Positions 2,486 to 40,213 of a DNA stretch of 64,000 nucleotides are shown one piece after another (position 1 is the first letter of the stretch; each line of letters opens with the position of its first letter). A program made the position numbers and the translations under genes. The stretch is from an uncultured virus (IMG/VR IMGVR_UViG_3300021087_000010) (lineage: Duplodnaviria; Heunggongvirae; Uroviricota; Caudoviricetes): the IMG/VR virus record IMGVR_UViG_3300021087_000010. One strand, written 5' to 3'. The notes below the pieces were generated by a model that did no database searches, was not told the origin of the DNA, and was given only the letters and a program-made list of their open reading frames with translations.

Positions 2486-2502
2486 TTTTTATTTTCCTGT
2501 TG

Positions 2503-4393: not shown

Positions 4394-4594
4394 TTATCTA
4401 CTTGCACAAAAATTAGTAGCAGAGCTGTCTAGCTCTGGGTCATAATCTGGGCACTCCTTTTCTGGAGTCTTATTAAGATCTGGGCAGAGGTATGTTCCCT
4501 CTCTATCATTATAGCATAGACCATCTAGTACTTCCATTGTTGAACAACTTGTTATAGTAAGTACAATTATTAAAGCTAATATTAGCTGGTTCAT
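4394..4594 (-). CDS. small Cys-rich lipoprotein
   Basis: Hydrophobic signal peptide with lipobox-like ITSC. Confidence 0.55.
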   Translation of the reverse strand: MNQLILALIIVLTITSCSTMEVLDGLCYNDREGTYLCPDLNKTPEKECPDYDPELDSSATNFCASR

Positions 4595-4908: not shown

Positions 4909-4909
4909 A

Positions 4910-5257: not shown

Positions 5258-5279
5258 AATTTTTTCATAATTTTTTTAT

Positions 5280-5354
5280 TGGCGGTCTAACGGAGAATTG
5301 AACTCCGATTTCAAGCGTGACAAGCTTGTGTGGTAACCATTACACTATTAGACC
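5280..5354 (-). tRNA. tRNA-Asp(GTC)
   Basis: Acceptor GGTCTAA/TTAGACC, anticodon arm CAAGC-TTGTCAC-GCTTG, T-loop GTTCAATTC, encoded CCA. Confidence 0.93.
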
Positions 5355-5356
5355 AT

Positions 5357-5432
5357 TGGTGGAGCTGATAGGAATCGAACCTACGACCTTTCGGATGCAA
5401 ACCGAACGCTCTCCCTTCTGAGCTACAGCCCC
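5357..5432 (-). tRNA. tRNA-Ala(TGC)
   Basis: Acceptor GGGGCTG/CAGCTCC with G3:U70, anticodon arm TTCGG-TTTGCAT-CCGAA, GTTCGATTC, encoded CCA. Confidence 0.95.
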
Positions 5433-6112
5433 TCTAAAGTTTGGTCTAATCTACCAAAGTTATATAGATGTATCTGTTCGTGATTTAAATAACTAATAAA
5501 CTTACTAGTATTAAATCCATTCTTATTAATATATTGTATGCCTACTAAATTTTCTATAATATGCTTAAAACTTTCTGTTAATCCACATATTTTCATATAC
5601 TTTAATAAGCCTTCAATAGAGCAATTTGTTGGTACTCCAGCAATTGTTTTATTTTCCCATGTGTTTAATAATTTACTATTAAGACATAATTGCGTTATGC
5701 CTTTTGAAAACTTTCCATACTTAGTCAAAAGAGTATGATTGAAAGATTCTTCTTGTGGATAAACACCACAATACATTTCAAAATCATATCTTTTAATTAC
5801 ACGATATACTTCATCTACTCCTTGAAATGCTCTTCCTTTTCGCTCACTTCCTCCAATAACTAGAACTTTGTCAATGCCAGCTTCTTTAGCTTTATCGAGT
5901 GCTATATGAAGTCCAGCTTCAGAACCTAAATTCCTAGCAGCTATATGAGGCATTGCCTTTGCTTTACCAGCAAGTTCATTTATGTCAATTGCTGCATTTA
6001 TTACTTGACTAAAGGGTGTCTTAGGTAAATGAGTAATAGAAACAGTTGTTGCAGTATCAATTGCATACTGTGACATCTTTTGATTAGGTGTTTTCTCAAC
6101 ACTAATTTTCAT
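5423..6112 (-). CDS. MTHFR (MetF)-like FAD-linked oxidoreductase, shortened
   Basis: SITHLP, MPHIAARN, GIDKVLVIGG, GVYPQ and ITQ resemble MTHFR-fold motifs. Only 229 aa. Confidence 0.65.
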   Translation of the reverse strand: MKISVEKTPNQKMSQYAIDTATTVSITHLPKTPFSQVINAAIDINELAGKAKAMPHIAARNLGSEAGLHIALDKAKEAGIDKVLVIGGSERKGRAFQGVDEVYRVIKRYDFEMYCGVYPQEESFNHTLLTKYGKFSKGITQLCLNSKLLNTWENKTIAGVPTNCSIEGLLKYMKICGLTESFKHIIENLVGIQYINKNGFNTSKFISYLNHEQIHLYNFGRLDQTLEGL

Positions 6113-6121
6113 CTTTTCTCC

Positions 6122-6454
6122 TTATTTATTAAAAGTATATCTAATTTCTGTTTGTAGTTTACTTTTATGTTCTAGTTGATTTTTAAATTCCCATTTCCCT
6201 TTAAATGTCCAATTATCTTTATTAAACTTATATCCTATTTCTCCAGATTCACCATGCTCTGACATGACTCCTGCTTCTATAAACATAAATCCTTTGTCCA
6301 TCTTAAATTGGTAACCTGTTCTGAAATGATTTAAGTTTTTAACATAATTATCGTATTTAAACTCTACTTCATTTTTATACTCTATATAGGGAGCAGCCGC
6401 TAATTGCGACACCATACCTATTAGTAAAATTATTATTTTCAAATTTTTCTCCAT
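6122..6454 (-). CDS. small secreted beta-barrel-like outer-membrane protein
   Basis: Signal peptide, alternating aromatic beta-strands, C-terminal EIRYTF. Confidence 0.55.
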   Translation of the reverse strand: MEKNLKIIILLIGMVSQLAAAPYIEYKNEVEFKYDNYVKNLNHFRTGYQFKMDKGFMFIEAGVMSEHGESGEIGYKFNKDNWTFKGKWEFKNQLEHKSKLQTEIRYTFNK

Positions 6455-6918
6455 GTGTCTTTTTCCTTCTGTGTGGATAAATCATATAGTACCCACGGTA
6501 TACCTTCCCTATAAAGAACCCCTGCCCAAGTACAAGACTCGGGCACAGGCCTTTCAAGAGTGAAAGGGAAGGGGCAATCTTTTATCCATAGCACTGTGGC
6601 TATAATCTTTTTTTCCACTCTTAAAATTTTGTGGTATTTTAAATCCACTTTGTTCAATTTTTGTTTTACAAAAAAGTAACCTGTACTATCTATATAAAAC
6701 TTTCCTTGATGATTTAGATACGAAGGAATATCTCGTAGCATATATTTTAAAGGATATATACTTTTCATTGGGCTCTGTAATCTTCTTAGCCCAAGAGTTT
6801 TTCCTGTCATATTTCTATCATCTAATACTTGATTTTCAATCCATAAAATACCATCAATAAGTTCTACATTTGAGGTATGAACTACAAATAATGGAAATTC
6901 TATTTTATCATATATCAT
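6439..6918 (-). CDS. conserved T5-like hypothetical protein downstream of Pol
   Basis: ORF overlaps the Pol stop. Start moved to MIYDKIEFP. Confidence 0.65.
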   Translation of the reverse strand: MIYDKIEFPLFVVHTSNVELIDGILWIENQVLDDRNMTGKTLGLRRLQSPMKSIYPLKYMLRDIPSYLNHQGKFYIDSTGYFFVKQKLNKVDLKYHKILRVEKKIIATVLWIKDCPFPFTLERPVPESCTWAGVLYREGIPWVLYDLSTQKEKDTWRKI

Positions 6919-9181
6919 ACATCTTTTCAAACTTTCCGAAGGAATAATCATCTCCTACATCAAAGTCACAGCCGACTGGGCAGTTAGGGATTGACAGACC
7001 CCTATCCCGCTGAACATGCTCTCGTAGCAAATAAGAGTATGAATCTACGGCTGTTTCTTCTACTTCTGCAAGAATGGAGTCATGTACTAAAGCAAAAATA
7101 TTTGCTTTAGAACCCCACGGCATCTGTTTTAATTCATTATGAGTATCTATAGCTCCCAATAAATTTATATCTGAAGCTACAGATTGAACTAAAAAGTTCA
7201 TACCTGATCTAGCTTCATGACTAGCAACGCCTTTGTTATCCGAACGAACATTGGGTAACCGTCTTTTTCTTCCAAAGAAGGAGTATATAAACCCATTATC
7301 CATTATATACTTTGTAGACTGGTCTATCCATGCTCTAAGTTTGAAAAACTGTCGAAAGTAATCATCAATTACTTCTTGTGCCTCATTCCTACTAAAATAC
7401 TTGCCACTATCTTTAGTGACTTGCTCTGATATTTTAGCTGGGCCTGCACCATACATAATACCAAAAGTTACAGCTTTTGCTGCCTGCCTTTCAGTAGGAT
7501 AATCAGTTACAATATTTTCTACATCACCTGATAAGTTAAATACTAACTTAGCAATACTACTGTGAAAATTACCGCCTGATTGAAATACTTGTTGTAAGTT
7601 TTTGTCTTGTGCAAGTACAGCAGCGACATACACCTCTGCTGTTGTTAAATCCATTGCAACTATTTTATTGCCTGGCTTGGCTTTAATACACCCTTTTACA
7701 ATAGGGTTGTCTCGTGGTATTTGTTGCATATTCATTTTACCACTAGATGATAGTCTGCCAGAGGTTGTACTATGTATGTTGAACCCTGTGCGTAATCTGT
7801 CATCTCTATCTAACTGAGGTAATATTTTATCTAAATAAGTATTCTTTATCTTTGACTTTTGTCTTATAGAAAGAATATGTTTAGGTATTGAGTGCACCTC
7901 TGCTAGTCCTTGTAAAACTTCTGCATCTGTAGAATACGCTCCTGTAGCTGTTTTCTTAGATGGTTTAAGTCCTACAAAATCAAATAATAAAGCTCGTAAT
8001 TGAACTGTACTATTTGGATTAAATTCTTTTTCTTTTAATTTTTCAAACTTTTGTACTTCTTCAAAAGCATATAGTTCTGCTACTGCACAATCAATGTCAT
8101 GTTGCATTAACTCTGTACCTTTAGCAAGTCTATCCCTATCAAAAGGAACACCAACATCTTGTACATCTGTTAAGAATCTACATGCTGGAATAAGTATATT
8201 TTCATATACGGATAAAAGCTTTGCGTTTTTCATAACTGCTGGGTATAGCTTTTCAAATACTAATAGAGTTACTACTGCGTCCATAGCAGCATATGTTTTC
8301 ATTACTTCAAATGGAATTGAGTCCCATTGAAAGTCATCTTTAAGTATTCTATTAGCTTTTTTATAGTTAGCTATCCAATCTTGCATTGGTTTTTCGTAAT
8401 CCCCATAAGGAGTATACTTCATTGCAAGTTGTTTTAATCCATGTGTGCCTGGTACTTCTTCTAAGCAATAATGAAGTAACATTGTATCATGAAAATTAGG
8501 AAACTTAAAATTAAAGTGATATTCAAAGAAGGCTAAATCAAATTTTGCATTATGAAAAACTACTTGTTTTTCGTTAAATAACTTTTGCATTAATTCCTCA
8601 ACTTCATTATCAATAACATCAGTTACTATATAAGCGCCTTTATCTTTTTCATAAGATATACTAAATCCAAGCATATACCCATCTCTGGGGTATAATCCTG
8701 TGGTTTCTGAATCAAGTGCTATAAATTTATTAGGGTGTGCAAGTGCCTTTTCTAAAAACCCTTTAGCCTCTTCTACGGTATCTATGCCTAATGCGTTTTC
8801 TGAAGTTACTTTTTCTACTACTAAATCTCCACTAATATACTCTATAATATTCTTTTTGCTTTCGTCCCATAACGGCTTAGCTTCAGGTTTAAACGAAAGC
8901 ATAGCAGGATTAATAGCTGGTAAGAATTTATCATCTATACATCTCCCACTATACTCAGTTATTGAATTTGCAGAAGTATAACTTTTAAGTGCCTCTGAAC
9001 CTATGAGTATAACCCAATCATAATCGTCAATGTTAATTTCTATATCTACGTCAGCTTTAAGTACTTTCTTTTTACTTCTATCTGAGCATAGTGCATATCT
9101 ATCAAATTCAAATTTATTATCGAATCTATCTATATAGTTAGTTCTACTTGGTTTAGTCTCTATTAGTGCAATTTTATTCAT
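6908..9181 (-). CDS. family A DNA polymerase with 3'-5' exonuclease
   Basis: Exonuclease motifs DSETTG, HNAKFD and YAAMD. Polymerase motifs TSGRLSS, RQAAKAVTFGIMYG and VHDS. Confidence 0.97.
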   Translation of the reverse strand: MNKIALIETKPSRTNYIDRFDNKFEFDRYALCSDRSKKKVLKADVDIEINIDDYDWVILIGSEALKSYTSANSITEYSGRCIDDKFLPAINPAMLSFKPEAKPLWDESKKNIIEYISGDLVVEKVTSENALGIDTVEEAKGFLEKALAHPNKFIALDSETTGLYPRDGYMLGFSISYEKDKGAYIVTDVIDNEVEELMQKLFNEKQVVFHNAKFDLAFFEYHFNFKFPNFHDTMLLHYCLEEVPGTHGLKQLAMKYTPYGDYEKPMQDWIANYKKANRILKDDFQWDSIPFEVMKTYAAMDAVVTLLVFEKLYPAVMKNAKLLSVYENILIPACRFLTDVQDVGVPFDRDRLAKGTELMQHDIDCAVAELYAFEEVQKFEKLKEKEFNPNSTVQLRALLFDFVGLKPSKKTATGAYSTDAEVLQGLAEVHSIPKHILSIRQKSKIKNTYLDKILPQLDRDDRLRTGFNIHSTTSGRLSSSGKMNMQQIPRDNPIVKGCIKAKPGNKIVAMDLTTAEVYVAAVLAQDKNLQQVFQSGGNFHSSIAKLVFNLSGDVENIVTDYPTERQAAKAVTFGIMYGAGPAKISEQVTKDSGKYFSRNEAQEVIDDYFRQFFKLRAWIDQSTKYIMDNGFIYSFFGRKRRLPNVRSDNKGVASHEARSGMNFLVQSVASDINLLGAIDTHNELKQMPWGSKANIFALVHDSILAEVEETAVDSYSYLLREHVQRDRGLSIPNCPVGCDFDVGDDYSFGKFEKMYDI

Positions 9182-9187
9182 TATTAT

Positions 9188-9216
9188 ATTATATCAAATT
9201 TTAAGCGCCATGTCAA
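9188..9216 (-). promoter_or_regulatory. sigma70-type promoter of Pol (leaderless geometry)
   Basis: TTGACA-17-TATAAT, then 6 nt, then ATG. Confidence 0.8.
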
Positions 9217-10052
9217 GAACTATATAACCTATCCCTCAAACTGGTAACCTTACTAGCAGCAAGACCGCCTGGGTCTATATTAGCTCCTAAGTTTACATTC
9301 CTAGAAATAAGTCCTACCTTATCTGCCATGATCTTTATGTTTTCTGCAGCTGATTGTCCAGCTTCATCCCCATCAAATACTATATCTACTCCATCTACAT
9401 TCTGCATTTTAAGAATAGATAATTTATCTTCATCTATGTTCTTTGTTCCAAAGCAACATACTGAATTAGATAAACCCTTGTCGAAAAGATTTATCATATC
9501 AAAAATCCCTTCGACAAGAATTATCTTGCCTTTTATTGGTTTAACATTAGAGGGGAAAAGCGGCATAACGGCTTGGGGAGGATATATTAAGTACTTTGGC
9601 CTTTCGGTCATAGTCATATGTCTACCGTTAAATGCTACTACTTTTCCCGTAATGTCACGAATAGGAAAAACGATCCTGCCGTTGAAACTCCTATCATGAT
9701 GTAAGAAGGCTTCAAAGTGTTTATATGTTTCGGGCTTTATTCCACGCCAGTTTCCCACATAAGGTGTGAACCCTATTGGAAAGTCAAAACCTACACTTGA
9801 ACTTCTTGTTTCCTCTATTTTATCTTTTAGTTTTTGTCTCCTTATTTCTAAGAAGTTAGCTGCTGCTCCGAAGTGATTAAAGATACTCCCTCGAAACCCA
9901 CAAGCAAAGCAATGAAAAATCCCTGTAAGATTATCTATTCTCATAGAAGGACTCTTGTCCTCATGTTCAGGGTTTAAACATTTGACTAAATAGTCTCTGC
10001 CAGAAACTTTAAAGTCTACATTTCTTTCTTGTAGTAGTTCGTCTACTCTCAT
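9213..10052 (-). CDS. DNA primase (zinc finger plus TOPRIM)
   Basis: C..P.H.D..PS...FHCFAC zinc finger, VEGIFD and FDGD. Confidence 0.95.
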   Translation of the reverse strand: MRVDELLQERNVDFKVSGRDYLVKCLNPEHEDKSPSMRIDNLTGIFHCFACGFRGSIFNHFGAAANFLEIRRQKLKDKIEETRSSSVGFDFPIGFTPYVGNWRGIKPETYKHFEAFLHHDRSFNGRIVFPIRDITGKVVAFNGRHMTMTERPKYLIYPPQAVMPLFPSNVKPIKGKIILVEGIFDMINLFDKGLSNSVCCFGTKNIDEDKLSILKMQNVDGVDIVFDGDEAGQSAAENIKIMADKVGLISRNVNLGANIDPGGLAASKVTSLRDRLYSS

Positions 10053-10597
10053 TCTAACTCACTATTATCCATATTAGTATTATGAGAGTGTATAGTATTA
10101 TTTCTATCATGTTTCCATTTTAGTTTTTCGCCTAAGTCTTCGTAATCGGTCATTTGCGTCCCTTGCCCATCAACTTCATGTGGGTAGTAGAGGCTTTTAA
10201 ATACTACTTCTTGTAGTTGAAACCAAATGGCCACGGCTTTGTCAACAAGTTCCTTGTTTGGCCACAAGTAAAATACATTGTGGTAGTCTCCTAAAAACCT
10301 GTGGACTGTTATGTTTAAATTATAGTTTTCATCTATATTGTCTCTAATATGAGCTACCGCTCTTATTCTTTGACTTCCCGCTATAGGGTACCAGTTTTCC
10401 ATACATAAATGAGGATTTTTAATACCCTCCATTAATATACTTTCTACTAGTGGTTCATTTAGCGGTACATTTCTTATATTGTCCTCAACTTTTGGTTGAG
10501 CTAATATAAAATTAGTTGTAATTGCTCTTATTTCAAAAGGGGGTACGGCTACTAATGACGCTGCAGTTTTTCCTATTCTATCGCTTGCCAATGTCAA
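10049..10597 (-). CDS. ParB/sulfiredoxin-like domain protein
   Basis: LVESILMEGIKNP...IAGSQRIRA resembles the ParB N-terminal motif. Confidence 0.55.
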   Translation of the reverse strand: MTLASDRIGKTAASLVAVPPFEIRAITTNFILAQPKVEDNIRNVPLNEPLVESILMEGIKNPHLCMENWYPIAGSQRIRAVAHIRDNIDENYNLNITVHRFLGDYHNVFYLWPNKELVDKAVAIWFQLQEVVFKSLYYPHEVDGQGTQMTDYEDLGEKLKWKHDRNNTIHSHNTNMDNSELE

Positions 10598-10841
10598 ACC
10601 CCACTTCTCTATCTGCTACCCATTGTGAAAATCTATCAAGTAAACTTTGTTTATTTAATTGATCTGTATACTCTGTCCAGACTTTTCCATTCTTTTTTGT
10701 TTCTTCATACCTAAAAGAGCCATTATTATATGCTATTGTTAAAAGTCCATTATCAGCATAAATATATTTAATTTCTCTTCCCCATTCTTCTGCTTCCATT
10801 TTTAGTTTATGGTCTCTTACTTCGTCATCATACTGCGTCAT
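10578..10841 (-). CDS. hypothetical protein
   Basis: 87-aa ORF overlapping both neighbours. Confidence 0.55.
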   Translation of the reverse strand: MTQYDDEVRDHKLKMEAEEWGREIKYIYADNGLLTIAYNNGSFRYEETKKNGKVWTEYTDQLNKQSLLDRFSQWVADREVGFDIGKR

Positions 10842-12183
10842 GTATATCTTCTCCTGTTGCTAAACTGTCTTTTAAATTGTCCCTATCTTTAGGGTTCATT
10901 GTTGACTGAGGGCCTATTTTTAGTGTTTCCCAGTCCATTACACTTGTGAATCCTTCCATTTTTGCACTTCTCATTTTTGTACAGTTGAATGTAATACATT
11001 CATCTTCTGGAGCCCATGTTTCAATAGTAAAGGCTGCATCTGCTGCATCAAGAATTCCTTTTGCAAATCTAGCTTCTCCTGTATTGTCTGTTTGAAAAGG
11101 AGAGAATACAGGTACTTCATATTCCTGAGCCATGCTTTTCAGAGTCTTACTTACTTCAATTTGCTCTGTCCAGTCATACTGTCCGCTTTTAGACGGCACA
11201 TTTGTTCGTTTTACTTGGTTTATATAATCTACTATAATTACACCTACATCTGTTTGATTTATTTTTGATTCCAATTCTTTTCGTATTCGAGAAAGACTTA
11301 GTACAGGGTCATACACTACATCTATTTGTCTGTCTTTATTTAATTTATTTTTCGTAAGCGTACTATGAAAAGAATCAAAATCTCTATTATCATAGAATTC
11401 AGGTAATAAATCTACTCCGCCTTCAAATCTTCCTGCCCACCATTCTGCTACTCTATTCCACTCAACATTTGTCAAGTTCTTAGTAGCTAATCTACCTATC
11501 GGTATTCTTGCACCTAATGCACAAGCTCTTTGTAGAATAGCACGACTATCCATTTCTATTGTAAAATAGATGGCACTCTTACCTTGATTGTAAACATTAT
11601 TAGCAATATTAACACAAGTAAAAGTTTTACCTGCCCCTCTACGTCCGCCTATAAGAATAAGATCTCTTGGAGAAAATTTCATAGTCTGGTCATAATCGTC
11701 ATTTAATCCAAGCGGTAGATACTTTCTTAGATTTTTATCAGAATCAAATAGATTTATTGTTTTCATATCTTCTTCTGGTGGTTTCAAATCAACTCTATCC
11801 CCAATATCTAAAACTATTTGTTGTAGAGATTCTACATTTTCTTCAGCATTAGAAATGGCTACTGTCTTATCAATAAATGAGTCTAATTCCCCTAGGATTT
11901 CTACTTGGGTATATTCATTTTTTAAGTACTCGAGCAAAACCCAAGCGTCAACATCTACTTCGACTGCCTGTATTGCGTGTACTTTTTCTTGTAGTTTTCT
12001 ATCACGAATGGATAGTTTAAGGTCTTCAAAAGTTGGGAGGTGATTGAAGTGTTTTAAATGGTTGGATATAACTCTAAACAGAGCCTGATACTCGCCAGGT
12101 AAATAATTCTCCCTTAGGCTGCCCCAAGTATCGAAATCTTCCTGTACTATAATCTGCTTCAGTAAAGCTGAAGTTAAGTTCAA
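10828..12183 (-). CDS. DnaB-like replicative helicase
   Basis: Walker A GRRGAGKT, FTIEM, IIVDYIN and ARFAKGILDAADA. Confidence 0.93.
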   Translation of the reverse strand: MNLTSALLKQIIVQEDFDTWGSLRENYLPGEYQALFRVISNHLKHFNHLPTFEDLKLSIRDRKLQEKVHAIQAVEVDVDAWVLLEYLKNEYTQVEILGELDSFIDKTVAISNAEENVESLQQIVLDIGDRVDLKPPEEDMKTINLFDSDKNLRKYLPLGLNDDYDQTMKFSPRDLILIGGRRGAGKTFTCVNIANNVYNQGKSAIYFTIEMDSRAILQRACALGARIPIGRLATKNLTNVEWNRVAEWWAGRFEGGVDLLPEFYDNRDFDSFHSTLTKNKLNKDRQIDVVYDPVLSLSRIRKELESKINQTDVGVIIVDYINQVKRTNVPSKSGQYDWTEQIEVSKTLKSMAQEYEVPVFSPFQTDNTGEARFAKGILDAADAAFTIETWAPEDECITFNCTKMRSAKMEGFTSVMDWETLKIGPQSTMNPKDRDNLKDSLATGEDIHDAV

Positions 12184-21401: not shown

Positions 21402-21887
21402 TTAAATTTCACTAAATAAGTTTGCTTCTGCTTTTCTTCTCTTAATTAATCCTTCTAGAACTTGTCCACCTGCTTTATTCCATCGTTTAATTTCGATAGG
21501 TACTGCTTGGTAGTTTCCGTTATTGAGTTCTTTTAAAAGAGTGCTTTTTCTGAAGTTGGTGGGGCCGAGGTTGTATACCCATACTACTAGGGCATCAAAC
21601 TGGTTTTGATTTAGGGGGACTGTTACTAGGTCATCTACATAACTTTCATACTCTTTGAGTTCGTCAAGTAACATTTGTTCTGCTTGCTCTTGAGTAATTG
21701 TCATGCCTTCGTACACACCTTTAGTGTGCCCATATCCTATAGTCCACACACCTACAGAGTCCTGATAAGCTACGAGTTTGCAACCTTCATAGAACTTTAG
21801 TAAGTCTGTTCCTTTATATCCTAAATTCATTAATATGTATCCTATTATTAGTAGTATAATTACTACCCATTGTAAAAAATTGTTCAT
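21402..21887 (-). CDS. GH24 lysozyme endolysin with N-terminal TM (SAR-type)
   Basis: EG...AYQDSVGVWTIGYGHT, NQFDALV..YNLG and GL..RR.AE. The start at 21887 overlaps the IscA stop and gives a hydrophobic N-terminus. Confidence 0.92.
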   Translation of the reverse strand: MNNFLQWVVIILLIIGYILMNLGYKGTDLLKFYEGCKLVAYQDSVGVWTIGYGHTKGVYEGMTITQEQAEQMLLDELKEYESYVDDLVTVPLNQNQFDALVVWVYNLGPTNFRKSTLLKELNNGNYQAVPIEIKRWNKAGGQVLEGLIKRRKAEANLFSEI

Positions 21888-22192
21888 ATGGTAAAGCTTT
21901 CGCCACAACCACACCTGCTTGTTTCCATACCATTCGTAACAGATATTTCTTCATTAATACCTTTTACCTCCCAATCAACTACTGCGTTAGCTAGTATTTC
22001 ATGGCTATGTATATCAACTGCTAATATATTTTGGTATAATATATCATTGGAATTATTAGGGTTATCCTCATAATTCAAATCATACTTATATCCTCCACAT
22101 CCGCCACCTTTGACGGAAAGCCTCGCGCCCCAACTTCCTGCTGAGACGCAACGCTCTTTAAGTTTTGATAATGCTTTTTCTGTTATTATCAT
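21884..22192 (-). CDS. iscA: A-type Fe-S carrier (IscA/HesB family)
   Basis: GGGCGGY and C-terminal CGCGESF. Confidence 0.88.
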   Translation of the reverse strand: MIITEKALSKLKERCVSAGSWGARLSVKGGGCGGYKYDLNYEDNPNNSNDILYQNILAVDIHSHEILANAVVDWEVKGINEEISVTNGMETSRCGCGESFTI

Positions 22193-22203
22193 AACACTTG
22201 TCT

Positions 22204-22371
22204 TTATAACCAATTAAAGTAAGGCCACATTACTATATATGATAAACTAATCATGTATATAGTGAATGTTATTCCTATACAAGTATTCCCGTTTGGGCAA
22301 TACTTATCTTTAAAGTCTTGAACCGCTTGCAGACTAACATTGCGATTCAGGAATCGTAATGCTCTCTGCAT
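22204..22371 (-). CDS. small membrane protein
   Basis: Manual 55-aa ORF MQRALRFLNR... with AGGAG SD. Confidence 0.55.
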   Translation of the reverse strand: MQRALRFLNRNVSLQAVQDFKDKYCPNGNTCIGITFTIYMISLSYIVMWPYFNWL

Positions 22372-27599: not shown

Positions 27600-27743
27600 C
27601 TACTCCTGTTCTTCTGTGTTATTTTGTTGTTTACGAGAATATTTAGTCCTATCGCGCATTCTACAGGCACGATTAAATCTCCGAGCAAATTTTGCTACGG
27701 GGTTACGATTTTTTCTCTTAGGATTTTTAGTTCTCTTTTTCAT
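27600..27743 (-). CDS. small highly basic protein (NPVAK motif, possibly ArfA-like)
   Basis: Manual 47-aa ORF MKKRTKNPKRKNRNPVAKFARRFNRACRMRDRTKYSRKQQ..., with leaderless promoter geometry. Confidence 0.6.
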   Translation of the reverse strand: MKKRTKNPKRKNRNPVAKFARRFNRACRMRDRTKYSRKQQNNTEEQE

Positions 27744-27799
27744 ATATCTATTATACTACGCTTTCAGTGAATTGTCAAGAACTATTTTTTACTAGGCAT

Positions 27800-27826
27800 A
27801 AAAAAACCCCGCACTCTGGCGGGGTT
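27800..27826 (-). terminator. intrinsic terminator
   Basis: AACCCCGC-cagagt-GCGGGGTTTTTTT on the - strand. Confidence 0.85.
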
Positions 27827-27848
27827 CAAAAATGTTGATTATTTAGAT

Positions 27849-28715
27849 TGGCGGGTGAGTAAATCCTTCAGCCGTCTGTAGGGGATTAGGCTACTTACTA
27901 CTTGAGTTCTCGTTAGGGCTCAGCGTCATGAATTCGCATTTTCGTCCATTTATTACTGCTCTCGTAGATTTGTTATGTTGCACTATTAATGCTTGCATTG
28001 TATGTTTAAGTAGTTCGTATGCTCTTCCACTTGTCAATTTATTACTCGGCTTATACACTCCGATGTTTAGTACTGCCCCCTTCATTTGCAATCACGCAGG
28101 TACTAGATGAACTCTCGCCGTTCTCGGATTCTCACTCGAGAGTGCTCCTTCCGAAGAGTTGGCTATCCTCTATGCTCTTAGAGTTCTTACCACAGGGTTG
28201 GTTTGATAGCTTAATTAATTTTACTACTTGGTGTCCTTCTCACCCATGCATTATTTAACGACCTGTTCTTTCGGGTCGGAACCAGGCTCATATTTTTCCT
28301 GCCTTCCTAGTCACAGACAGCTGTCTCATACAGCCTGCCGAGACGACAGACTGTATCAAGGTATGATGTAGTGTACCACCCTGCATAGTGATGCTTTGTT
28401 TTACATGAGGCTCAATCACTGCGCGCTCTGACTCATGGTTTGTTATTTGAAGGATTTATCACTAGTGCGTGCTAGATTTACTACCCCTTTTCCGAGCATT
28501 CCGCTCCCGAGATGTTATCGTGGCATCTACGGCTCAATCACGACCCAATTTCTAGGCGGGACACCTACTTACCAATGGTAATGCTGGTAAGCGCAATAAT
28601 CGGGAAGAAGAAGCGTATTTAAAGGCTAGGATTCCGCGTCTACACGCGACACCATTATTGCTCTTTCATAAAGCCCGAAGGCTATTTTTTACTTTTGGTC
28701 TTTTTCTCAATTTCT
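27849..28715 (-). ncRNA. putative large structured ncRNA (GOLLD/ROOL size class)
   Basis: Bounded by TTGACA-17-TATAAT (28722-28750) and a terminator (27800-27826). No credible ORF, raised GC, many hairpins and a long-range 11-bp helix 28448-28458/27860-27870. Confidence 0.7.
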
Positions 28716-28833
28716 GTATATATTATACTAAATTTTTGAAGCTGTGTCAAGAAGTTTCTTAAGATTTGCTTAAAATACTTTTTGGGAATCTGCTAGGGAA
28801 TCTCACGATTAACCCTAGCATATCCTTTGGGAC

Positions 28834-29151
28834 TTAGCTTAATATGTCAACTAATTTTTGTAAATCAGCTTTACTAGCTTTTACTAAAGTCGGTAATTCG
28901 ATGCCGAAGTGTACATTAATCTGAGCAACAAGTTCAGCTTTGCGAACAACTGGCTCACCTGATTTGGTAACCTTTGGTTGTGCGATGTATACGCCTTCTC
29001 TTGATAACTTAGCTATTATGCTTCTTACGGATTTTCCGAACTCAGCGGCTAGTGCTTCAACAGTATCTCTGGTAGGGTTAGCTTCGTACATTGCTGTCAT
29101 TTGCTCTACCATTGCGTCTGTATAATTTTTTGCTCTTGCTACTTCTGTCAT
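28834..29151 (-). CDS. T5 A2-like DNA-binding protein
   Basis: Architecture like T5 A2 (N-terminal HTH with SV.S.KL...Y, C-terminal RKA.LV...L.KA...L). Own promoter and CAGGAG SD. Confidence 0.65.
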   Translation of the reverse strand: MTEVARAKNYTDAMVEQMTAMYEANPTRDTVEALAAEFGKSVRSIIAKLSREGVYIAQPKVTKSGEPVVRKAELVAQINVHFGIELPTLVKASKADLQKLVDILS

Positions 29152-29240
29152 TGTTTTCTCCTGCGAAAATTGTGTTATTAAATTTTGTTTATGGTATTAT
29201 TATATCACGCTACCAGTTGCGTGTCAAGGGTTAGCTTATG

Positions 29241-29366
29241 CTAGAGTAAACCCTTTGCCTCTAGAGCGATTGCGAAAATCGCTAATGTTAGAAAAATTAC
29301 TAGCGAGTAAAGTATGGAATACTTATTCCAATGTTTCGCTATTTTGTATTTCTCGTAATTTGTCAT
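29241..29366 (-). CDS. 41-aa single-TM protein
   Basis: Manual ORF MTNYEKYKIAKHWNKYSILYSLVIFLTLAIFAIALEAKGLL, downstream of a consensus promoter at 29378-29406. Confidence 0.5.
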   Translation of the reverse strand: MTNYEKYKIAKHWNKYSILYSLVIFLTLAIFAIALEAKGLL

Positions 29367-29568
29367 TTATAGTATCTATTATATAGAGCGTAATCAGTGT
29401 TGTCAAGAATTATTTTAAGATAGCACTCATTATTTAACGCCAGCGAACTCTCGGGGGCCGAACGCGAAATCTCGAAACTTCGTTTCAAATATCGCAAAAA
29501 ACGAAAATTCCTCGGCGGGTGTGCGTAAATCTTCCCGAAACTTCGCATAACCCCGCATAAGCTATTTC

Positions 29569-29597
29569 TTGACATTCTGTCCCCGCTATGGTATAAT
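29569..29597 (+). promoter_or_regulatory. consensus sigma70 promoter with no downstream ORF
   Basis: TTGACA-17-TATAAT. Confidence 0.75.
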
Positions 29598-29886
29598 ATC
29601 CAGGGTGGGAAGGGGGATATCCTAGATTTAGTACTCGCTCGCACGCTCGCGCGTAATTTCATGTGTTTACTACTATGCGACGCTACGGCGCAGCCGGCAT
29701 TAATTTCATTTGTTTACTACTGTGTGTTCGGCGCGCTCGCTGTGAAAAGTGAAACAGTCGCTATAGGGAGGCGTCCCAAAGTGAAATATATTTAGCCCTC
29801 TGAGAGGTTAATTTAGGAAAAGTGAGATAGTTAGCGTCTCATTTTAGACTGTTTTAAATTATTTCACTATTCGCGTAAGAAAAGAC

Positions 29887-29922
29887 TTGACAAATCGTAA
29901 AAAGCGTGGTATAATGGGCGCC
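29887..29922 (+). promoter_or_regulatory. consensus sigma70 promoter with GC-rich discriminator, no ORF
   Basis: TTGACA-17-TATAAT-GGGCGCC, followed ~25 nt later by the hairpin AACCCCGA...TCGGGGTT. Confidence 0.75.
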
Positions 29923-29988
29923 GCCCAAGCCTAAACGCAAAAAACCCCGACACGGCTTGGCTCGTTCGGGGTTGTTTCGGTACTCGTT

Positions 29989-30138
29989 TTAGGAGAGTAA
30001 GCCTTTGACCATTTCTAGTGCTTCAATGTTAGCTCTGCTAAGGGATTGTGCTATTTTAGGGTCTACGCCTTTGGCGATTATCTCATTGATGAGGGCTTTT
30101 TTAGTTGGTCTCGCAACTTTTGCTTTTTCTTGTTTCAT
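29989..30138 (-). CDS. small protein resembling the A2 C-terminal domain
   Basis: MKQEKAKVARPTKKALINEII...SLSRANIEAL. CAGGAG SD and own promoter. Confidence 0.6.
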   Translation of the reverse strand: MKQEKAKVARPTKKALINEIIAKGVDPKIAQSLSRANIEALEMVKGLLS

Positions 30139-30243
30139 GTCTTTCTCCTGATTAACTACTATTATATAGAGCCAACAGGGAATTGTCAATAAGAATTATA
30201 GACTTGGCTTAAGATATATTTGATGCCACGCGCAAGAAAGTAC

Positions 30244-30277
30244 TTGACTTTCCCTCCCCGCTGTGGTATAATGGCGC
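30244..30277 (+). promoter_or_regulatory. consensus sigma70 promoter with GC-rich discriminator, no ORF
   Basis: TTGACT-17-TATAAT-GGCGC. Confidence 0.75.
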
Positions 30278-30424
30278 TGCCGCGCGTAGACTTTAAACTT
30301 CACATTTGCACTTTGTTTGGCGCGCACGCCACTTTTAAACTTCATATTTGCACTTCCTCTCTGGCGCAGGCGGCACGCGTAATTTCATATCACCACTACT
30401 TCGGCGCGCTTTGGCGCAGCGCGG

Positions 30425-30447
30425 ATGAGAATGATTATCATTCTCAT
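30425..30447. promoter_or_regulatory. Fur-box-like palindrome 1 (extended)
   Basis: ATGAGAATGAT-T-ATCATTCTCAT. Confidence 0.7.
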
Positions 30448-30519
30448 TTGGCTTTTTTCAGGCAAAAGAGAATCCCCTGAGGCTATTAGGGGCATTACCA
30501 TTACGAAAGCTAAGTCAGT

Positions 30520-30705
30520 TTAGCTTGCGTTGAGCATACGAAGAATCAATTCCAAATTTTGGATATTGGTTCTTTCAAGAGATACCATGTTAAACTCACC
30601 GCCACCTAAAAGTGGAGAATCAGTTTCCATGATATTTCTTATAAGCTCTTTTTTGGATTTTGCTTTCGCTTTTTCCATTTCAGGCTCCGAAGAATTGTTA
30701 AACAT
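30520..30705 (-). CDS. small protein resembling the A2 C-terminal domain
   Basis: SKKELIRNIMET...GGEF..VSLERTNIQNL. Leaderless promoter geometry. Confidence 0.65.
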   Translation of the reverse strand: MFNNSSEPEMEKAKAKSKKELIRNIMETDSPLLGGGEFNMVSLERTNIQNLELILRMLNAS

Positions 30706-30750
30706 AAGGGTATTATAGCAAAAAAACGCAGACCTGTCAAGCGAAAAAGC

Positions 30751-30967
30751 GAAAATAAATAAATTATTTTCCTTGACATTTCCGAGCGGCTGTGTTATAA
30801 TCGGCGCTCCAAATGAGAATCATTCTCATTTGGCTTTCTTGTTTTTTTGGGCTTTTTTTGGTGGCTTATCTCGTCGTGCTTTATAATTTGGTATAACCAA
30901 ATTATAAAGCGTGTCGGCGTATTTGTCAAGCATTTTTCGGAAAATAAATAAATTATTTTCCTTGACA
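30751..30967. repeat. convergent-promoter cassette, copy 1
   Basis: + promoter 30773-30801, Fur-like box 30811-30831, 33-bp palindrome 30878-30910, - promoter to ~30930. Repeated at 32344-32549. Confidence 0.85.
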
Positions 30968-30993
30968 TTTGGCAAAATTCGTGCTAGGAATTT

Positions 30994-31593
30994 TTAACCT
31001 GTGGCTCGAATTAATGCGTCTAAAAGTTCAATTTTTCCTGTGTCTTTTTGAACCACATTCCAAGAAGGGCAAGTTGAAAACATAATTTCTTTTGCGTTCG
31101 TAATTGCTTCAAAATAATCAATCGCTAGAGCGTCAGAGGGAGAATATTTATAAGGCTTATTTATTTTTCTGTTTTCTAAAACGATAGCTTGTCTTTCTTT
31201 AGAAATTGAAATCCAATTTTTGTATATCTCAACATTTTTTTCTGTAAGCATTTTATTTTCCCATTTGGCAACCTTTCGCATATGATTAATATATTGTCTT
31301 TTTGTGCAATAATTAAAAACAGGGTGAACCCATGAGCGTGTGTGCCACGACCTATCATAAATAACAACCTCTGATTTTTTCGGCATGATTTTTTCATAAT
31401 CAGAAAGCCATTTTTTCATGCGTGTTTTTGTCGGCATACCTTGATGACGATAAACAAAGTTAATATCATTTTTAATTAGTAGCTTGACAAAGCCACCTTT
31501 TCCAGAAGCGTCTCGACCTTCCAAAACAAAAGCGATTTTTCTATCGCCTAAGTTTTGGATATTTTCTTTTAGCATTTCGATTGAATTTTTCAT
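30994..31593 (-). CDS. ppk2: polyphosphate kinase 2 family protein
   Basis: Walker A VLEGRDASGKGG, DRSW, K.WISIS..RQ and YKYSPSD. The start overlaps the upstream stop (ATGA). Confidence 0.82.
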   Translation of the reverse strand: MKNSIEMLKENIQNLGDRKIAFVLEGRDASGKGGFVKLLIKNDINFVYRHQGMPTKTRMKKWLSDYEKIMPKKSEVVIYDRSWHTRSWVHPVFNYCTKRQYINHMRKVAKWENKMLTEKNVEIYKNWISISKERQAIVLENRKINKPYKYSPSDALAIDYFEAITNAKEIMFSTCPSWNVVQKDTGKIELLDALIRATG

Positions 31594-31832
31594 AGTACCC
31601 AGATTAAAGTTAGTAAAGGAATAACAACCCAAATTATAAAATCGGTTGTTAGTGAATATCTGAAATATAGTTTTTTCAGAAAATTAGTTGCGACAGTTTC
31701 AGTTCCAATTTGAAAATCGAAATTTTCTTTTTCTAGGATTTTACAAGCTGTTTCAAATTTTTTGACATCTTCGGAATTGTCAATTTCAAAGTTGGTTTTT
31801 ATTGTTAGTCTTTTTGTTATTAATTTTTTCAT
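31590..31832 (-). CDS. small C-terminally anchored membrane protein
   Basis: 80 aa with a hydrophobic C-terminus. Confidence 0.55.
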   Translation of the reverse strand: MKKLITKRLTIKTNFEIDNSEDVKKFETACKILEKENFDFQIGTETVATNFLKKLYFRYSLTTDFIIWVVIPLLTLIWVL

Positions 31833-31836
31833 TGTT

Positions 31837-32298
31837 TTATTTTAGCATTAAATGGTCTTGATGTAAACAGTTAATTCCAATTTTTTGCATTTCTTTTTGA
31901 ATTATTTTGTTATCATCAAACATGATTTTTTCCATGTTTTTAAATTGTTTTAGATTGAAAAGTCTTTTCAGTTTTGCTGTTTTCATTTCAGCGTCGGCTC
32001 TGTGGTCGCCATTTTTTCTGCAAAGAATAGTTTTTGCTTTGATTCCATGATGAGCCAAAAAGTCAAAATCTGCTTTGCTCATATTTCTAGCTGTGCAAAT
32101 CCAAACATTTTTATTTGCTTTTATTAATGCTTTCATAAAATCGGCAAGTGGCAAAAGTGAATCTTTGAAAATGTTTTTTCTTGTGGAATCTGAAATCCAT
32201 TTTTCAAGGTCTAATTTTCCTTCGGCAGTTCCTGTGAATCTGTGCGAAGAATCAATGACAGTTCCGTCAAGGTCAAATATGTATAATTTATTTTTCAT
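31837..32298 (-). CDS. HAD-superfamily phosphatase (PNKP-phosphatase-like)
   Basis: FDLDGT, ICTAR, D..MK and MFDD. Confidence 0.85.
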   Translation of the reverse strand: MKNKLYIFDLDGTVIDSSHRFTGTAEGKLDLEKWISDSTRKNIFKDSLLPLADFMKALIKANKNVWICTARNMSKADFDFLAHHGIKAKTILCRKNGDHRADAEMKTAKLKRLFNLKQFKNMEKIMFDDNKIIQKEMQKIGINCLHQDHLMLK

Positions 32299-32343
32299 AA
32301 TGTAATTATATCAAAAAAAGCAAGACCTGTCAATAAAAAAGAT

Positions 32344-32549
32344 GAAAATAAAAAAAATAAATCGCTTGACATTGGGCGGCTTTTGTGGTATAATCGGCGC
32401 CTCCAAATGAGAATCATTCTCATTTGGGGTTTTTATTTTTTGGGGTCTTTTCGAGGCGTGCTTTATAATTTGGTATAACCAAATTATAAAGCGTGTCGGT
32501 CCAAATGTCAAGGGTCTCAAGGAAAATAAATAAATTATTTTCCTTGACA
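32344..32549. repeat. convergent-promoter cassette, copy 2
   Basis: + promoter 32366-32394, Fur-like box 32405-32425, 33-bp palindrome 32460-32492, - promoter to ~32511. Confidence 0.85.
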
Positions 32550-32608
32550 ATCTCCTCTATTTATGCTTGCGGCTCATTCATGAAATCTATAGCTTCCTAT
32601 AGATTCCA

Positions 32609-33034
32609 TTAATAAGGCTTTTTGTATATAGAGCCATCTCGTTTTCTCTCCCACGCCATAGGCATAGGCGCAGGTGATTTTTTAAAGTGTCTAAAACCTA
32701 ACGCTAGATATTTCTTTATCTTAGGCATTCCACCCTTGACATAGAACCATTCAGAACCACCATTAGATTTAACGCCAGTAGTCCTAGAGTTCTGACCTTG
32801 CCATTTCTTTTGATAGCCTAGCTTAGCGAGATAGTATTGTATTTGCCATTCGATAGAGTAAGCGTCATGTTTAGAAGCTATCTCTATAGTGTGTAATACC
32901 TTGAGCCTATGGTCTAAGCCATATTCCTTTTGTATAGATGTCTCTATATCATAACGCCTATGGTGTATGTCATTGGCTACACCTATCTTATGATAGGGTT
33001 TCTTATTACATTTCATTATGTATAGTGTAGTCAT
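32609..33034 (-). CDS. GIY-YIG/T5orf172-like nuclease
   Basis: LYIM...HKIGVA...R...IE..I...GGSEWF. Confidence 0.7.
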   Translation of the reverse strand: MTTLYIMKCNKKPYHKIGVANDIHHRRYDIETSIQKEYGLDHRLKVLHTIEIASKHDAYSIEWQIQYYLAKLGYQKKWQGQNSRTTGVKSNGGSEWFYVKGGMPKIKKYLALGFRHFKKSPAPMPMAWERKRDGSIYKKPY

Positions 33035-33572
33035 TAGTCTCTTGCTCCTGTCATTATAACCAGTGATAAGCAAAGGCTAGAAGCAACCGAAGTCAATACC
33101 AATAGGGCAATTTCAATAACCCATATATCAGTATATCCGACATCTTCAAAGCATAGCACATTATTCTGTGCAGTTAATATTACCATAGCTTGCATATAAG
33201 CTATGAACCCAAATGCCACCATTCCCATTGATGACGCAATCAATATAGTTTTATTTAACATTATATTATTATCCTTATTAACATAGAACCATTAAGAGCC
33301 AAGCCAATTAAATTACCTATGGTATAAACCATATCGCCCTGTTTCCACGCTCTGTATTGGTAGCATAGCAACCCAAGACATATACCTGTGGGCAATGTCC
33401 AGTGTGGCATGATACCATTATAATGCGAGGGTAACAAAGAAACCTGTACCAAAAACATACCAAGATAAGCGACCTTATCTTCAAAAGATATTTTTGTTTT
33501 AATCTCAATATCGTTAATGAGATTGGCTCTGTGAGAAGCCAAGATTTTTTGTTGTCTAATTGTTTGATTCAT
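33034..33572 (-). CDS. two small membrane proteins (33034-33261; 33261-33572, three TM, PQ-loop/SemiSWEET-like pattern)
   Basis: Hydrophobic segments and a C-terminal GDMVYTIGNLIG. Confidence 0.5.
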
Positions 33573-33622
33573 AATAATTCCAGTAAAAATGGGGGCTGAG
33601 TAATGGCAACCCCCGAACCATT

Positions 33623-33802
33623 TTATTTTGCGTCTTTCAGCAAAATGTCTCTAAGAAGAATAAGATTAAAAATATTCATTCTTTCCAAAGATACATGGTC
33701 GAATTCTCCACCAGTATTTGTTGGGGTTTCAATGATTTCTCTAATCAAGATTTTTTTAGAGGGTCTTTTTGGAAGTGAGTTTCCAGCTTTTTTATTTAAC
33801 AT
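33623..33802 (-). CDS. small protein resembling the A2 C-terminal domain (paralogue of 30520-30705)
   Basis: Manual 59-aa ORF ...PSKKILIREIIETPTNTGGEFDHVSLERMNIFNL, preceded by TTGCTA-17-TATAAT-6nt. Confidence 0.7.
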   Translation of the reverse strand: MLNKKAGNSLPKRPSKKILIREIIETPTNTGGEFDHVSLERMNIFNLILLRDILLKDAK

Positions 33803-33888
33803 ACCTGTATTATACAGGAAGATTAACCCAATAGCAATAGCAAAACCGAAAATAAATGAATTAATGCGACACCATATGACGCAGGGTT

Positions 33889-33907
33889 AATGATAATCAT
33901 TCTCATT
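33889..33907. promoter_or_regulatory. Fur-box-like palindrome 4
   Basis: AATGATAATCATTCTCATT. Confidence 0.7.
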
Positions 33908-33921
33908 TGGGGCCCCCGTCA

Positions 33922-33977
33922 TAGTGTAGTAGTAGAGTAACACACCCCGCCTTAGTGTATTAGTATAGTAACACACC
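33922..33977. repeat. 25-bp imperfect direct repeat x2 (TAGTGTA.TAGTA.AGTAACACACC)
   Basis: Copies at 33922-33946 and 33953-33977, flanked by G/C runs. Confidence 0.85.
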
Positions 33978-34143
33978 GAGGGGGCGGTTCATTGACCTTG
34001 ACACGCTCTCTCTCTGTGGGCCCCCCTTTACGTACTACTTGGGATTTTTCAAAAAAGCAAAAAAGACGCTATCGTCAGTATCATAATGATACATCTAGAA
34101 AATATTTCTTGACAATACTGCTAAATTTTGATATAATACTAGC

Positions 34144-34605
34144 ATGAGTACAAATTTAGTAACCAAAATGAGTCCTGAAGGACTGGAGATCGCAAACGCT
34201 TATCTGGAGAAGGGAACTATCCCGGCCGTTTGCACTAAATTAGGCATAACCGAAAATGAGGTTAGTGAAGTCCTAAATAAAAGAGAAATCAAACAATATA
34301 TAGATACTGTTTTTCTAGACACAGGTTATAGAAACCGATTTAAAATATCGGAAACTTTAGATATGCTTATTGAAAAAAAGCTAGAAGAAGCAGATGAAAC
34401 TGAAATATATACTACTAAGGATATGGCAGATCTATTACAGATGGCACATAAAATGAGAATTGAGGAATTGAAAGCTCAGACAGAAATGGAAAAAGCAAAA
34501 GCGCAAACCATTAAAACTCAAGTTAATATTCAAGACAATTCTGGAACCCCTTTTGGGCAAGGAAACTATGGACTACTCATAAAAAAATTGATGAAAGATC
34601 AATAG
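34144..34605 (+). CDS. terminase small subunit (T5-like)
   Basis: MSPEG.EI..AYL, GYRNR, KKLEE and AHKMR match my recollection of T5 TerS. Leaderless promoter at 34109-34137. Confidence 0.8.
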   Translation: MSTNLVTKMSPEGLEIANAYLEKGTIPAVCTKLGITENEVSEVLNKREIKQYIDTVFLDTGYRNRFKISETLDMLIEKKLEEADETEIYTTKDMADLLQMAHKMRIEELKAQTEMEKAKAQTIKTQVNIQDNSGTPFGQGNYGLLIKKLMKDQ

Positions 34606-39790: not shown

Positions 39791-40213
39791 GTGGCTTACT
39801 CACAAAAAGTAGTACAACGATTTGAAAATGTACTAAAAAACCCACAAGCACATAACGTTGGTCGTTTTGACCCTGCTAAACCTAATATTGGTACTGGTAT
39901 GGTCGGAGCTCCAGCTTGTGGAGATGTTATGAGATTACAACTAAAAGTTGAAGATGGCATAATTGAAGACGTTAAATTTAAAACATATGGTTGTGGATCA
40001 GCCATAGCAAGTTCGAGTGAGTTAATCGACTTACTTACAGGCAGTACTTTGGAACAGGCGAAATCTATCACTAATAAACAAATAGCTAACGCATTAGAAC
40101 TTCCGCCTATCAAATTACACTGTTCTGTACTCGCTGAAGATTCAATTAAACAAGCTGTAGGTGATTATGAATCCAAAGCAGAGCAAAGAAGGCACAATGG
40201 AGGCCCAGAATGA
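39791..40213 (+). CDS. iscU: Fe-S scaffold IscU/NifU-N
   Basis: GAPACGDVM, KTYGCGSAIAS and LPPIKLHCSVLAE. Confidence 0.95.
   Translation: MAYSQKVVQRFENVLKNPQAHNVGRFDPAKPNIGTGMVGAPACGDVMRLQLKVEDGIIEDVKFKTYGCGSAIASSSELIDLLTGSTLEQAKSITNKQIANALELPPIKLHCSVLAEDSIKQAVGDYESKAEQRRHNGGPE

Follow-up and report, generated by a model that had tools for sequence, protein, structure and literature searches.

Fur-like palindromes on the pre-early side of a marine T5-like phage genome: predicted sites of a host iron regulator

The DNA of the uncultured virus IMGVR_UViG_3300021087_000010 (IMG/VR; 64,000 nucleotides, called the window below at its full length) appears, by its gene content, to be that of a distant, marine T5-like phage. 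Between positions 30,425 and 33,907 it carries four palindromes that resemble the operators of the bacterial iron regulator Fur, and none of them is attached to an iron gene. This raises the question of which protein reads such sites in a virulent phage, and to what effect. The answer preferred here, with moderate confidence, is that the four palindromes are sites of host Fe2+-Fur, which would gate pre-early promoters leading into no open reading frame (ORF). The basis of this reading is the identity of the palindromes with Fur-family operators, a conserved promoter-operator geometry and a restriction to the pre-early side of the genome. Fur binding, its dependence on iron and an effect on phage genes are predicted from these comparisons, and the phage probably reads the iron state of its host.

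The boxes and the operator they match

The whole window was scanned with the proteobacterial Fur consensus cited in an earlier sequence-only reading of this DNA (AATGA[G/T]AATnATT[A/C]TCATT), at most three mismatches being allowed and 100 shuffled windows serving as the control. The scan gave five matches, all at four places and none elsewhere; the shuffled windows gave a mean of 0.50 matches, and five were reached in 0 of the 100. A scan for the 15-nt core with at most one mismatch returned the identical five matches against 0.22 expected. All four loci have 0–1 mismatches to the consensus. As had been claimed, the match is near-perfect; it is found only at these places, far above the shuffle expectation, and the reported coordinates (30425–30447, 30811–30831, 32405–32425 and 33889–33907) are exact.

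Box 1 (30424–30448) is composed of two overlapping Fur-like boxes offset by 6 bp (30424–30442 and 30430–30448). Box 2 (30809–30833) and box 3 (32403–32427) are 25-bp palindromes with 19-mer cores at 30812–30830 and 32406–32424. They begin 10 and 11 nt, respectively, past the -10 element of ORF-less promoters, in agreement with the spacing of about 10 nt noticed in the sequence-only reading. Box 4 (33889–33907) is asymmetric, with one GATAAT-type and one GAGAAT-type half; it lies 237 bp ahead of the gene for the terminase small subunit (TerS) and about 96 bp ahead of the start of a 59-aa gene.

An exact scan for the 19-mer in one genome per species gave at least 121 loci, 80 of which were analysed with their flanks. 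The site lies outside ORFs of at least 200 aa at 74 of the 80 loci, and a hand count found a gene of metal or peroxide-stress homeostasis directly beside 26 of them. These flanking genes include FUR (five), FeoA (five), FTR1 (four), ZnuA (three more), ferritin (two) and AhpC (two), with a TonB plug, HemS, FecR, Peripla_BP_2 and Iron_transport once each. Binding proteins of ATP-binding cassette (ABC) transporters of the SBP_bac_6/8 type (iron-type) flank eight further loci. Because metal, stress and iron-ABC genes flank it in this way, the 19-mer is, on the comparative evidence, a genuine Fur-family operator in bacteria. In Actinomarina it stands between a fur-family gene and znuA, which is a Zur-like context, and in Gracilibacteria it precedes ahpC and ferritin, which is a PerR-like context; since both contexts exist, the motif seems to be generic to the Fur family. 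ArgR, Zur and PerR were considered as readers; Fur itself was preferred, given a host that would be a proteobacterium possessing one Fur gene.

In Chen 2007 (PMC2189734), Fur operators are described as a 19-bp unit of 9-1-9 structure, with sites that overlap by 6 bp; operators of Proteobacteria are also treated in Deng et al. 2015 (PMC4506495). The boxes of the window have the same palindrome length and symmetry, and their 19-mer is identical to sites at feoA, FTR1, fur and TonB-dependent receptor genes. Box 1 corresponds to a pair overlapping by 6 bp, and boxes 2 and 3 overlap the promoter start region. Unlike usual Fur operators, the boxes belong to a virulent phage, adjoin no iron gene, stand at ORF-less promoters, have a GGCGC companion and often form a palindrome of 25 bp, and their binding is predicted.

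The likely host lineage, assigned with moderate confidence by sequence similarity, is SAR86. The IscU protein of the phage matches proteins of the SAR86 order with 178–211 bits and 65–76% identity (E ≤ 1e-52 in 56 of 81 genomes). In 400 other genomes sampled across the phylum, its scores do not exceed 167 bits and its identity does not exceed 68%, the best E being 5.8e-49. One Fur gene per genome was found in five of five SAR86-order genomes, and Fur is taken as the reader because the host would be a proteobacterium with a single Fur gene. The motif, at no more than one mismatch, occurs in 74 of the 81 SAR86-order genomes, and its reversed control in one. Thirty SAR86 loci were examined: 20 flank TonB-dependent receptor genes, six iron-type ABC binding proteins, one EfeU and two rubrerythrin/OxyR, and one has nothing named beside it. 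The matches of these flanking genes (E-values of 1e-18 to 1e-49) fall below the curated cut-offs because the ends of the loci cut the ORFs. The 19-mer of box 4 also recurs in SAR86 genomes, as do paired sites with the 6-bp overlap of box 1. The identification of the palindromes as Fur boxes is strongly backed by this comparison, which finds the exact 19-mer beside genes of bacterial Fur regulons and beside SAR86 TonB-dependent receptors. The receptors that the 19-mer marks in SAR86 are the receptor class used by T5-type phages.

Promoter-operator modules in the window and in other phages

Between 27.7 and 34.1 kb the two strands hold 14 perfect (12/12) sigma-70 promoters and one with an 11/12 match. 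The latter (30244–30272, + strand) lies about 150 nt ahead of box 1; the DNA read from it, about 150 nt that are rich in GC, contain repeats and hold no ORF, terminates at box 1. Two of the perfect promoters, called P+ here, lie at 30773–30801 (module 1) and 32366–32394 (module 2) on the + strand; both are of the form TTGACA-17-TATAAT with a 12/12 match, and no credible ORF was found downstream of either. Boxes 2 and 3 sit in a duplicated module of about 265 bp, the second copy (32296–32549) being 73–86% identical to the first (30703–30967). Each module has the same order: a proximal minus-strand promoter, the divergent ORF-less P+, the box, a T-rich tract and a facing distal minus-strand promoter, the latter about 86 bp from P+ as the gap between inferred starts. 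In module 1 the proximal promoter (30712–30740, minus strand), which is perfect, serves a 61-aa gene (30520–30705) and diverges from P+ over an AT-rich palindrome. The T-rich stretch downstream of box 2 reaches 30859, and the perfect distal promoter facing P+ (30878–30929, minus strand) has its -10 element within a 33-nt palindrome (30878–30910). In module 2 the perfect proximal promoter (32305–32333, minus strand) belongs to an operon headed by a homologue of the T5 gene dmp; box 3 is followed by a T-run, and the perfect distal promoter (32460–32511, minus strand) comes with a 33-nt palindrome of its own (32460–32492).

The same arrangement was found in other phages. An exact scan of viral contigs for the 19-mer gave at least 123 loci, 80 of which were analysed with flanks, and only two loci were obtained with the reversed control, which is an enrichment of at least 60-fold. 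A 20-nt version including the TTTGG flank is present at no fewer than 121 viral loci, and 77 of the 80 analysed sites lie outside ORFs of at least 150 aa. Twenty-six distinct phage modules show one order, namely TTGACA, 17/18 nt, TAnAAT, (C/T)GGCGC and the box. The box starts 10–11 nt past the -10 element in 22 of the 26, and the sequence beyond it is unconserved. The first downstream ORF has an ATG start in three of the 26 modules and a Shine-Dalgarno-like motif in one; a facing promoter comes next in eight. Judging by the sequences, this placement of the box is an operator position. It makes a compact, portable promoter-operator cassette, kept in 26 variants.

The boxes are also confined to one side of the genome. 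In 55 relatives covered through TerS, with up to two mismatches allowed, 35 sites were counted in the 235 kb that precede TerS and 0 in the 400 kb that begin with it; for the reversed control the counts were 0 and 1, respectively. Fur-family genes were found neither in the window nor in the T5-like phage chee24 nor in four marine relatives. Since no Fur-family gene was found in these phages and the motif stands beside genes of unrelated phage types, a shared host protein would be the simplest common binder. The statement of the sequence-only reading that no iron gene is attached holds for the window boxes and extends to the viral contigs: among the 142 viral flanking ORFs, the 65 larger ones were scanned, and 0 iron families and no iron-uptake gene were found. 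The genes that do flank viral sites include T4-type Gp23 (in two), terminases, GP88 (in three) and CHASE2 cyclases (in five). In two T4-type contigs (L336:1501–1519 and L368:1501–1519) the 19-mer lies at or overlaps the stop end of gp23, and in other phages the palindrome may have other roles.

Gating of two promoters, those of boxes 2 and 3, fits the anatomy of the modules. Each of these boxes would cover roughly +4 to +22 of its perfect sigma-70 promoter, and because of this position iron-loaded Fur would occlude the start region of P+ and switch the ORF-less promoters off; apo-Fur in iron-starved cells would free P+. The freed promoter would fire against the facing promoter of the dmp-like operon or of the small paralogous gene, and its short transcripts would stop at the box hairpin and T-run. 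The resulting RNA would consist of a hairpin plus U-tail only and would be antisense to the leader of the facing promoter. Through collision or antisense pairing, derepression of P+ would therefore change how much transcription continues into the dmp-like operon and into the small paralogous genes. Boxes 1 and 4 would be free-standing Fur docking sites within the same block. A Fur-regulated small RNA of the RyhB type has a Fur box at its promoter, an RNA body with a seed and then a terminator. In comparison with this layout, promoter, box and terminator are present, but the transcript would hardly extend beyond the box hairpin and the U-rich tail. An Rfam search yielded nothing but tRNAs at the gathering threshold, and in 27700–30500 only two chance-level matches at E ≤ 1. 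RNA contigs from three runs (each at least 151 nt long) leave the modules and 29403–30470 uncovered, a 40-nt RNA being undetectable in this way. A DNA run shows joints at 31832->33888 and at the repeated modules, but their sides are short, at 20 nt.

Several observations weigh against gating by host Fur. Boxes 1 and 4 overlap no promoter, this overlap being seen at boxes 2 and 3 only, and boxes 1–3 also look like good + strand terminators. The host assignment comes, with moderate confidence, from a single gene, IscU. At 30 of 113 viral sites, but at only six of 120 bacterial sites, a GGCGC element is no more than 16 nt away from the box, and this companion hints at a phage-specific partner or function. 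Zero sites were found in the relatives G487 and G488 (both rated complete) and G486 (93% complete), and in nine of the 31 relatives whose sequence extends 3 kb or more beyond TerS on its upstream side; because some relatives do without it, the Fur-like box appears to be dispensable.

In two box-less relatives, homologous ORF-less perfect promoters are followed by DnaA-box-like sequences. One of them (L041:4539–4620) has a GGCGCG discriminator and then two consensus-type DnaA boxes; the other (L028:3918–3995) has a GC-rich discriminator followed by one variant and one partly read DnaA box. The injection-stop region of T5 contains both kinds of site, DnaA boxes as well as Fur-like ones. At the level of sequence, this replacement points to sites of host proteins. 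The features that are new here are the fixed promoter-operator geometry, the SAR86 receptor regulon sharing the operator, the linkage to dmp and the box-less relatives.

Alternative explanations and known systems

A phage-encoded DNA-binding protein that reads the palindromes, perhaps together with GGCGC, would make the Fur likeness a matter of mimicry or coincidence. In its favour, GGCGC/GCGCC is enriched beside viral boxes, with 40 occurrences in the first 10 nt and 2–9 per 5-nt bin beyond, unlike beside bacterial boxes, where no such enrichment exists. The block also encodes small conserved proteins that could be considered for this role, including paralogues of 50–61 aa and a 105-aa protein (28834–29151). 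However, the 105-aa protein is present in box-less relatives and has no match in the chee24 stretches although chee24 has boxes. In addition, the same 19-mer is found near genes of unrelated phage types and is identical, letter by letter, to the bacterial Fur-family operator. This explanation is unlikely.

The companion sequence itself lies at 30802–30811 and 32395–32405 in the window and in the viral set at loci L298–L420. The stretch before the box reads GGGCGCGGTCA in chee24, and the marine modules are nearly alike, with CGGCGCGGTCA.

The comparison with T5 bears on both host Fur gating and the next alternative. The flanks of the viral matches lead to T5-like phages of E. coli and Salmonella, and a 421-bp stretch around one match is common to 221 named phage records. 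In chee24, an E. coli phage, the 11 sites (up to two mismatches; reversed control 0) all fall within the terminal repeats except for one, which ends at 110596, 59 bp short of the repeat that starts at 110655. The main cluster (9152–9666, with sites at 9152, 9509, 9613 and 9648) lies beside DnaA boxes, no promoter being seen by eye beside the 9152 box, and its right-repeat copies are 302–816 bp from the right end of the record by coordinate subtraction. According to Davison 2020 (bioRxiv 10.1101/866236), T5 Repeat Region 3, to which the chee24 cluster corresponds, is the proposed injection-stop region, and its palindromes are called conserved with their function unexplained. The words 'Fur' and 'iron' have 0 occurrences in the main text of that preprint. 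Among the papers listed by a full-text literature search, none ties Fur boxes to the DNA of T5-type phages, and the T5 papers in that list were without Fur terms.

Repeat Region 3 and the window share the motif family and, probably, its location in the pre-early/terminal-repeat part of a T5-type genome. They differ in arrangement: E. coli T5-like phages have a dense gene-free array of boxes beside DnaA boxes, whereas the window has four dispersed boxes spread over 3.5 kb between genes, with perfect promoters, and no DnaA box was found in its box-bearing block. Repeat Region 3 is further defined by its position on the inner side of the terminal repeat, in the DNA transferred in the first step. 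In chee24 the late operon adjoins the right repeat, whose first gene is dmp; this adjacency resembles that of the window, but dmp is inverted in the window. The dmp homologue in the block and the ends of relatives' contigs upstream of TerS (see below) hint at a terminal-repeat-like location.

It is conceivable, as a rather doubtful extension of host Fur gating, that Fe-Fur is the missing host factor acting on the first-entering DNA of T5-type phages, with an iron checkpoint on ORF-less promoters. If so, the operator that sets the abundance of TonB-dependent receptors would also sit on the pre-early DNA of the phage, and in T5 itself Fe-Fur would contribute to the unexplained pause between first-step and second-step DNA transfer.

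Phages entering via iron-regulated TonB-dependent receptors would profit from sensing host iron. A host iron operator appears to be built into the earliest phage promoters in SAR86, a clade of the iron-limited ocean, and the motif is shared by the injection-stop DNA of T5, long without an explained function.

Alternatively, Fur or another host protein may dock architecturally on first-entering or terminal DNA, serving the injection pause, protection of ends or the terminase, as IHF helps at the λ cos. The confinement of the chee24 sites and the position of their cluster in the T5 injection-stop region agree with this. Box 4 stands shortly before TerS and beside GC-rich direct repeats, and the contigs of 13 out of 35 truncated relatives stop within 900 bp upstream of TerS, as would be seen for a repeat boundary or a physical end. 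A parallel is offered by nohA and nohB of E. coli, presumably prophage homologues of Nu1 (small terminase); there, Fur sites lie about 130–230 bp upstream of what is taken to be a packaging gene, similar to the distance of box 4 from TerS, but these genes are cryptic prophage remnants in the chromosome. In Chen 2007 (PMC2189734), the Fur cluster upstream of nohA is confirmed by gel shift and that upstream of nohB is predicted only. Architectural docking, however, would not need the fixed operator geometry of boxes 2 and 3, and there is no known mechanism by which a cytoplasmic protein halts DNA entry; the lack of DnaA boxes in the block speaks against it as well. Its probability is considered low.

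A decoy function, in which replicated phage genomes absorb Fur and derepress host iron uptake, had been suggested in the sequence-only reading and is improbable. It would agree with the box density, which is five matches per 3.5 kb in the phage and 2–4 sites per genome of 0.8–3.3 Mb in bacteria. It would also agree with the coding content: an IscU gene (39791–40213; NifU_N, E 5.5e-41) and an IscA-like gene (21884–22213; Fe-S_biosyn, E 9.7e-7) are both present, as that reading had stated, and since it carries them the phage would have a stake in iron supply. Yet each genome copy offers just four loci, boxes are absent from some of the complete relatives, a decoy needs no fixed position relative to a promoter, and late derepression of receptors would bring no obvious benefit. 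On this reasoning, titration by a few boxes per genome is less likely. Neither the IscU gene nor the IscA-like gene has a box nearby.

In the least probable explanation no protein reads the palindromes, which would serve short + strand transcripts as intrinsic terminators or RNA hairpins and have no other role. Boxes 1–3 do fold at -14 to -19 kcal/mol with T-runs after them on the + strand, and the ORF-less promoter at 29887 is likewise followed by a terminator, but box 4 has neither, sequence rather than pairing is conserved, and in bacteria this sequence stands as an operator upstream of iron genes. In detail, box 1 forms a terminator-like 13-bp hairpin followed by a T-run on the + strand (-19.0 kcal/mol, z -5.3); the folds of boxes 2 and 3 reach -14.1 kcal/mol (z -1.8) and -18.8 kcal/mol (z -3.4), and box 4 lacks a stable hairpin (z +0.9) and a T-run. 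Uncompensated G/T changes (K=T), found in 20 of 127 sites, break the hairpin and respect the G/T choice of the consensus. A terminator hairpin, raised as an alternative in the sequence-only reading, is plausible locally at three of the four sites and fails as a general explanation, a T-rich tail being present at just 11 of 114 distinct viral sites. Relatives keep the sequence, and hairpin and T-run are not conserved; the reverse would have counted against Fur.

Host-regulator boxes are found in other marine phages, with PhoB boxes before pstS of cyanophages and NtcA sites in cyanomyophages. These systems resemble host Fur gating in that a lytic marine phage uses a nutrient sensor of the host at its own promoters. 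They differ in that PhoB and NtcA boxes drive auxiliary metabolic genes, whereas here the gated promoters would be ORF-less and the regulator a repressor.

Genes and minor features of the block

The T5-like traits of the window are split NAD-ligase genes, a D5-like regulator, an SbcD-like gene, a T5-type tail module and a DNA polymerase 44% identical to Demerecviridae polymerases. Its GC content is about 35%. The early genes, on the minus strand, extend from about 33.8 kb to position 1; the late genes begin with TerS and use the + strand. A megablast search of 29500–34500 against named phages gave zero matches. No box is present in the nearest virus record (G001, 42 kb), from which the block itself may be missing. 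No homologues of T5 A1 and A2 were found in the window by tblastn (E ≤ 1).

The first gene of the operon behind module 2 (31837–32298, minus strand) encodes the homologue of Dmp, the pre-early deoxynucleoside-5'-monophosphatase of T5. It belongs to the HAD_PNKP family and has 40% identity over 91 aa (E 1e-18) with Dmp of chee24. An 80-aa ORF and the final gene of the operon, encoding a PPK2-family kinase (30994–31632, minus strand; E 1.3e-28), follow in this order. The 61-aa protein behind module 1 (30520–30705, minus strand) is paralogous to the product of 33623–33802 behind box 4 (58% identity, E 1e-11), and 29989–30141 encodes a weak paralogue (31%, E 8e-4). Each of these three small genes (50–61 aa) has its own perfect promoter, with a box about 100–300 bp upstream of the gene; none of their products gave a family match.

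TerS (34144–34605, + strand; phrog_3802, E 9e-38) is the first late gene and forms the right edge of the box-bearing block. Just 5' of it lies a GC-rich tract (33908–34035) with two 31-nt direct repeats (33914–33975) flanked by GGGGCCCCC-type palindromes. With contig ends within 900 bp upstream of TerS in the truncated relatives counted above, this tract could represent a site of packaging, the boundary of a repeat or an end of the genome.

The 105-aa protein has no family match. It is present in 38 of the viral loci examined, with 71–77% identity in its 12 best loci, and the box-less relatives having it are L028–L031, L037, L041 and L047. The three chee24 stretches in which tblastn gave no match to it come from 1–11871 and 92000–111500.

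The ORF-less perfect promoter at 29887 (region 29887–29985, + strand) has a GGCGCC discriminator and, no more than about 25 nt further on, a GC-rich terminator hairpin, which also terminates a converging 50-aa gene. Its design is that of a promoter followed by a terminator, as in the box modules, minus the box.

A minus-strand ORF-free cassette (27800–28716) is bounded by a perfect promoter (-35 at 28750) and a strong terminator (27827–27804). No Rfam match was found for it, and its fold z is only -1.3. The exact 31-nt core of the region covered by abundant RNA occurs in 0 viral contigs, and blastn of this region against the loci of relatives gave just a 65-nt promoter piece. Related strains without the cassette were seen in a DNA run (joints 28736->27772), and a search of the relatives examined did not find it either. 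In one metatranscriptome an RNA contig covers 27994–28685 at a depth of 648 with 0 differences; in a second RNA run the same part is covered at a depth of 14.5, other phage parts in the two runs having 2–43. The cassette is a candidate for an abundant non-coding phage RNA about 0.9 kb long.

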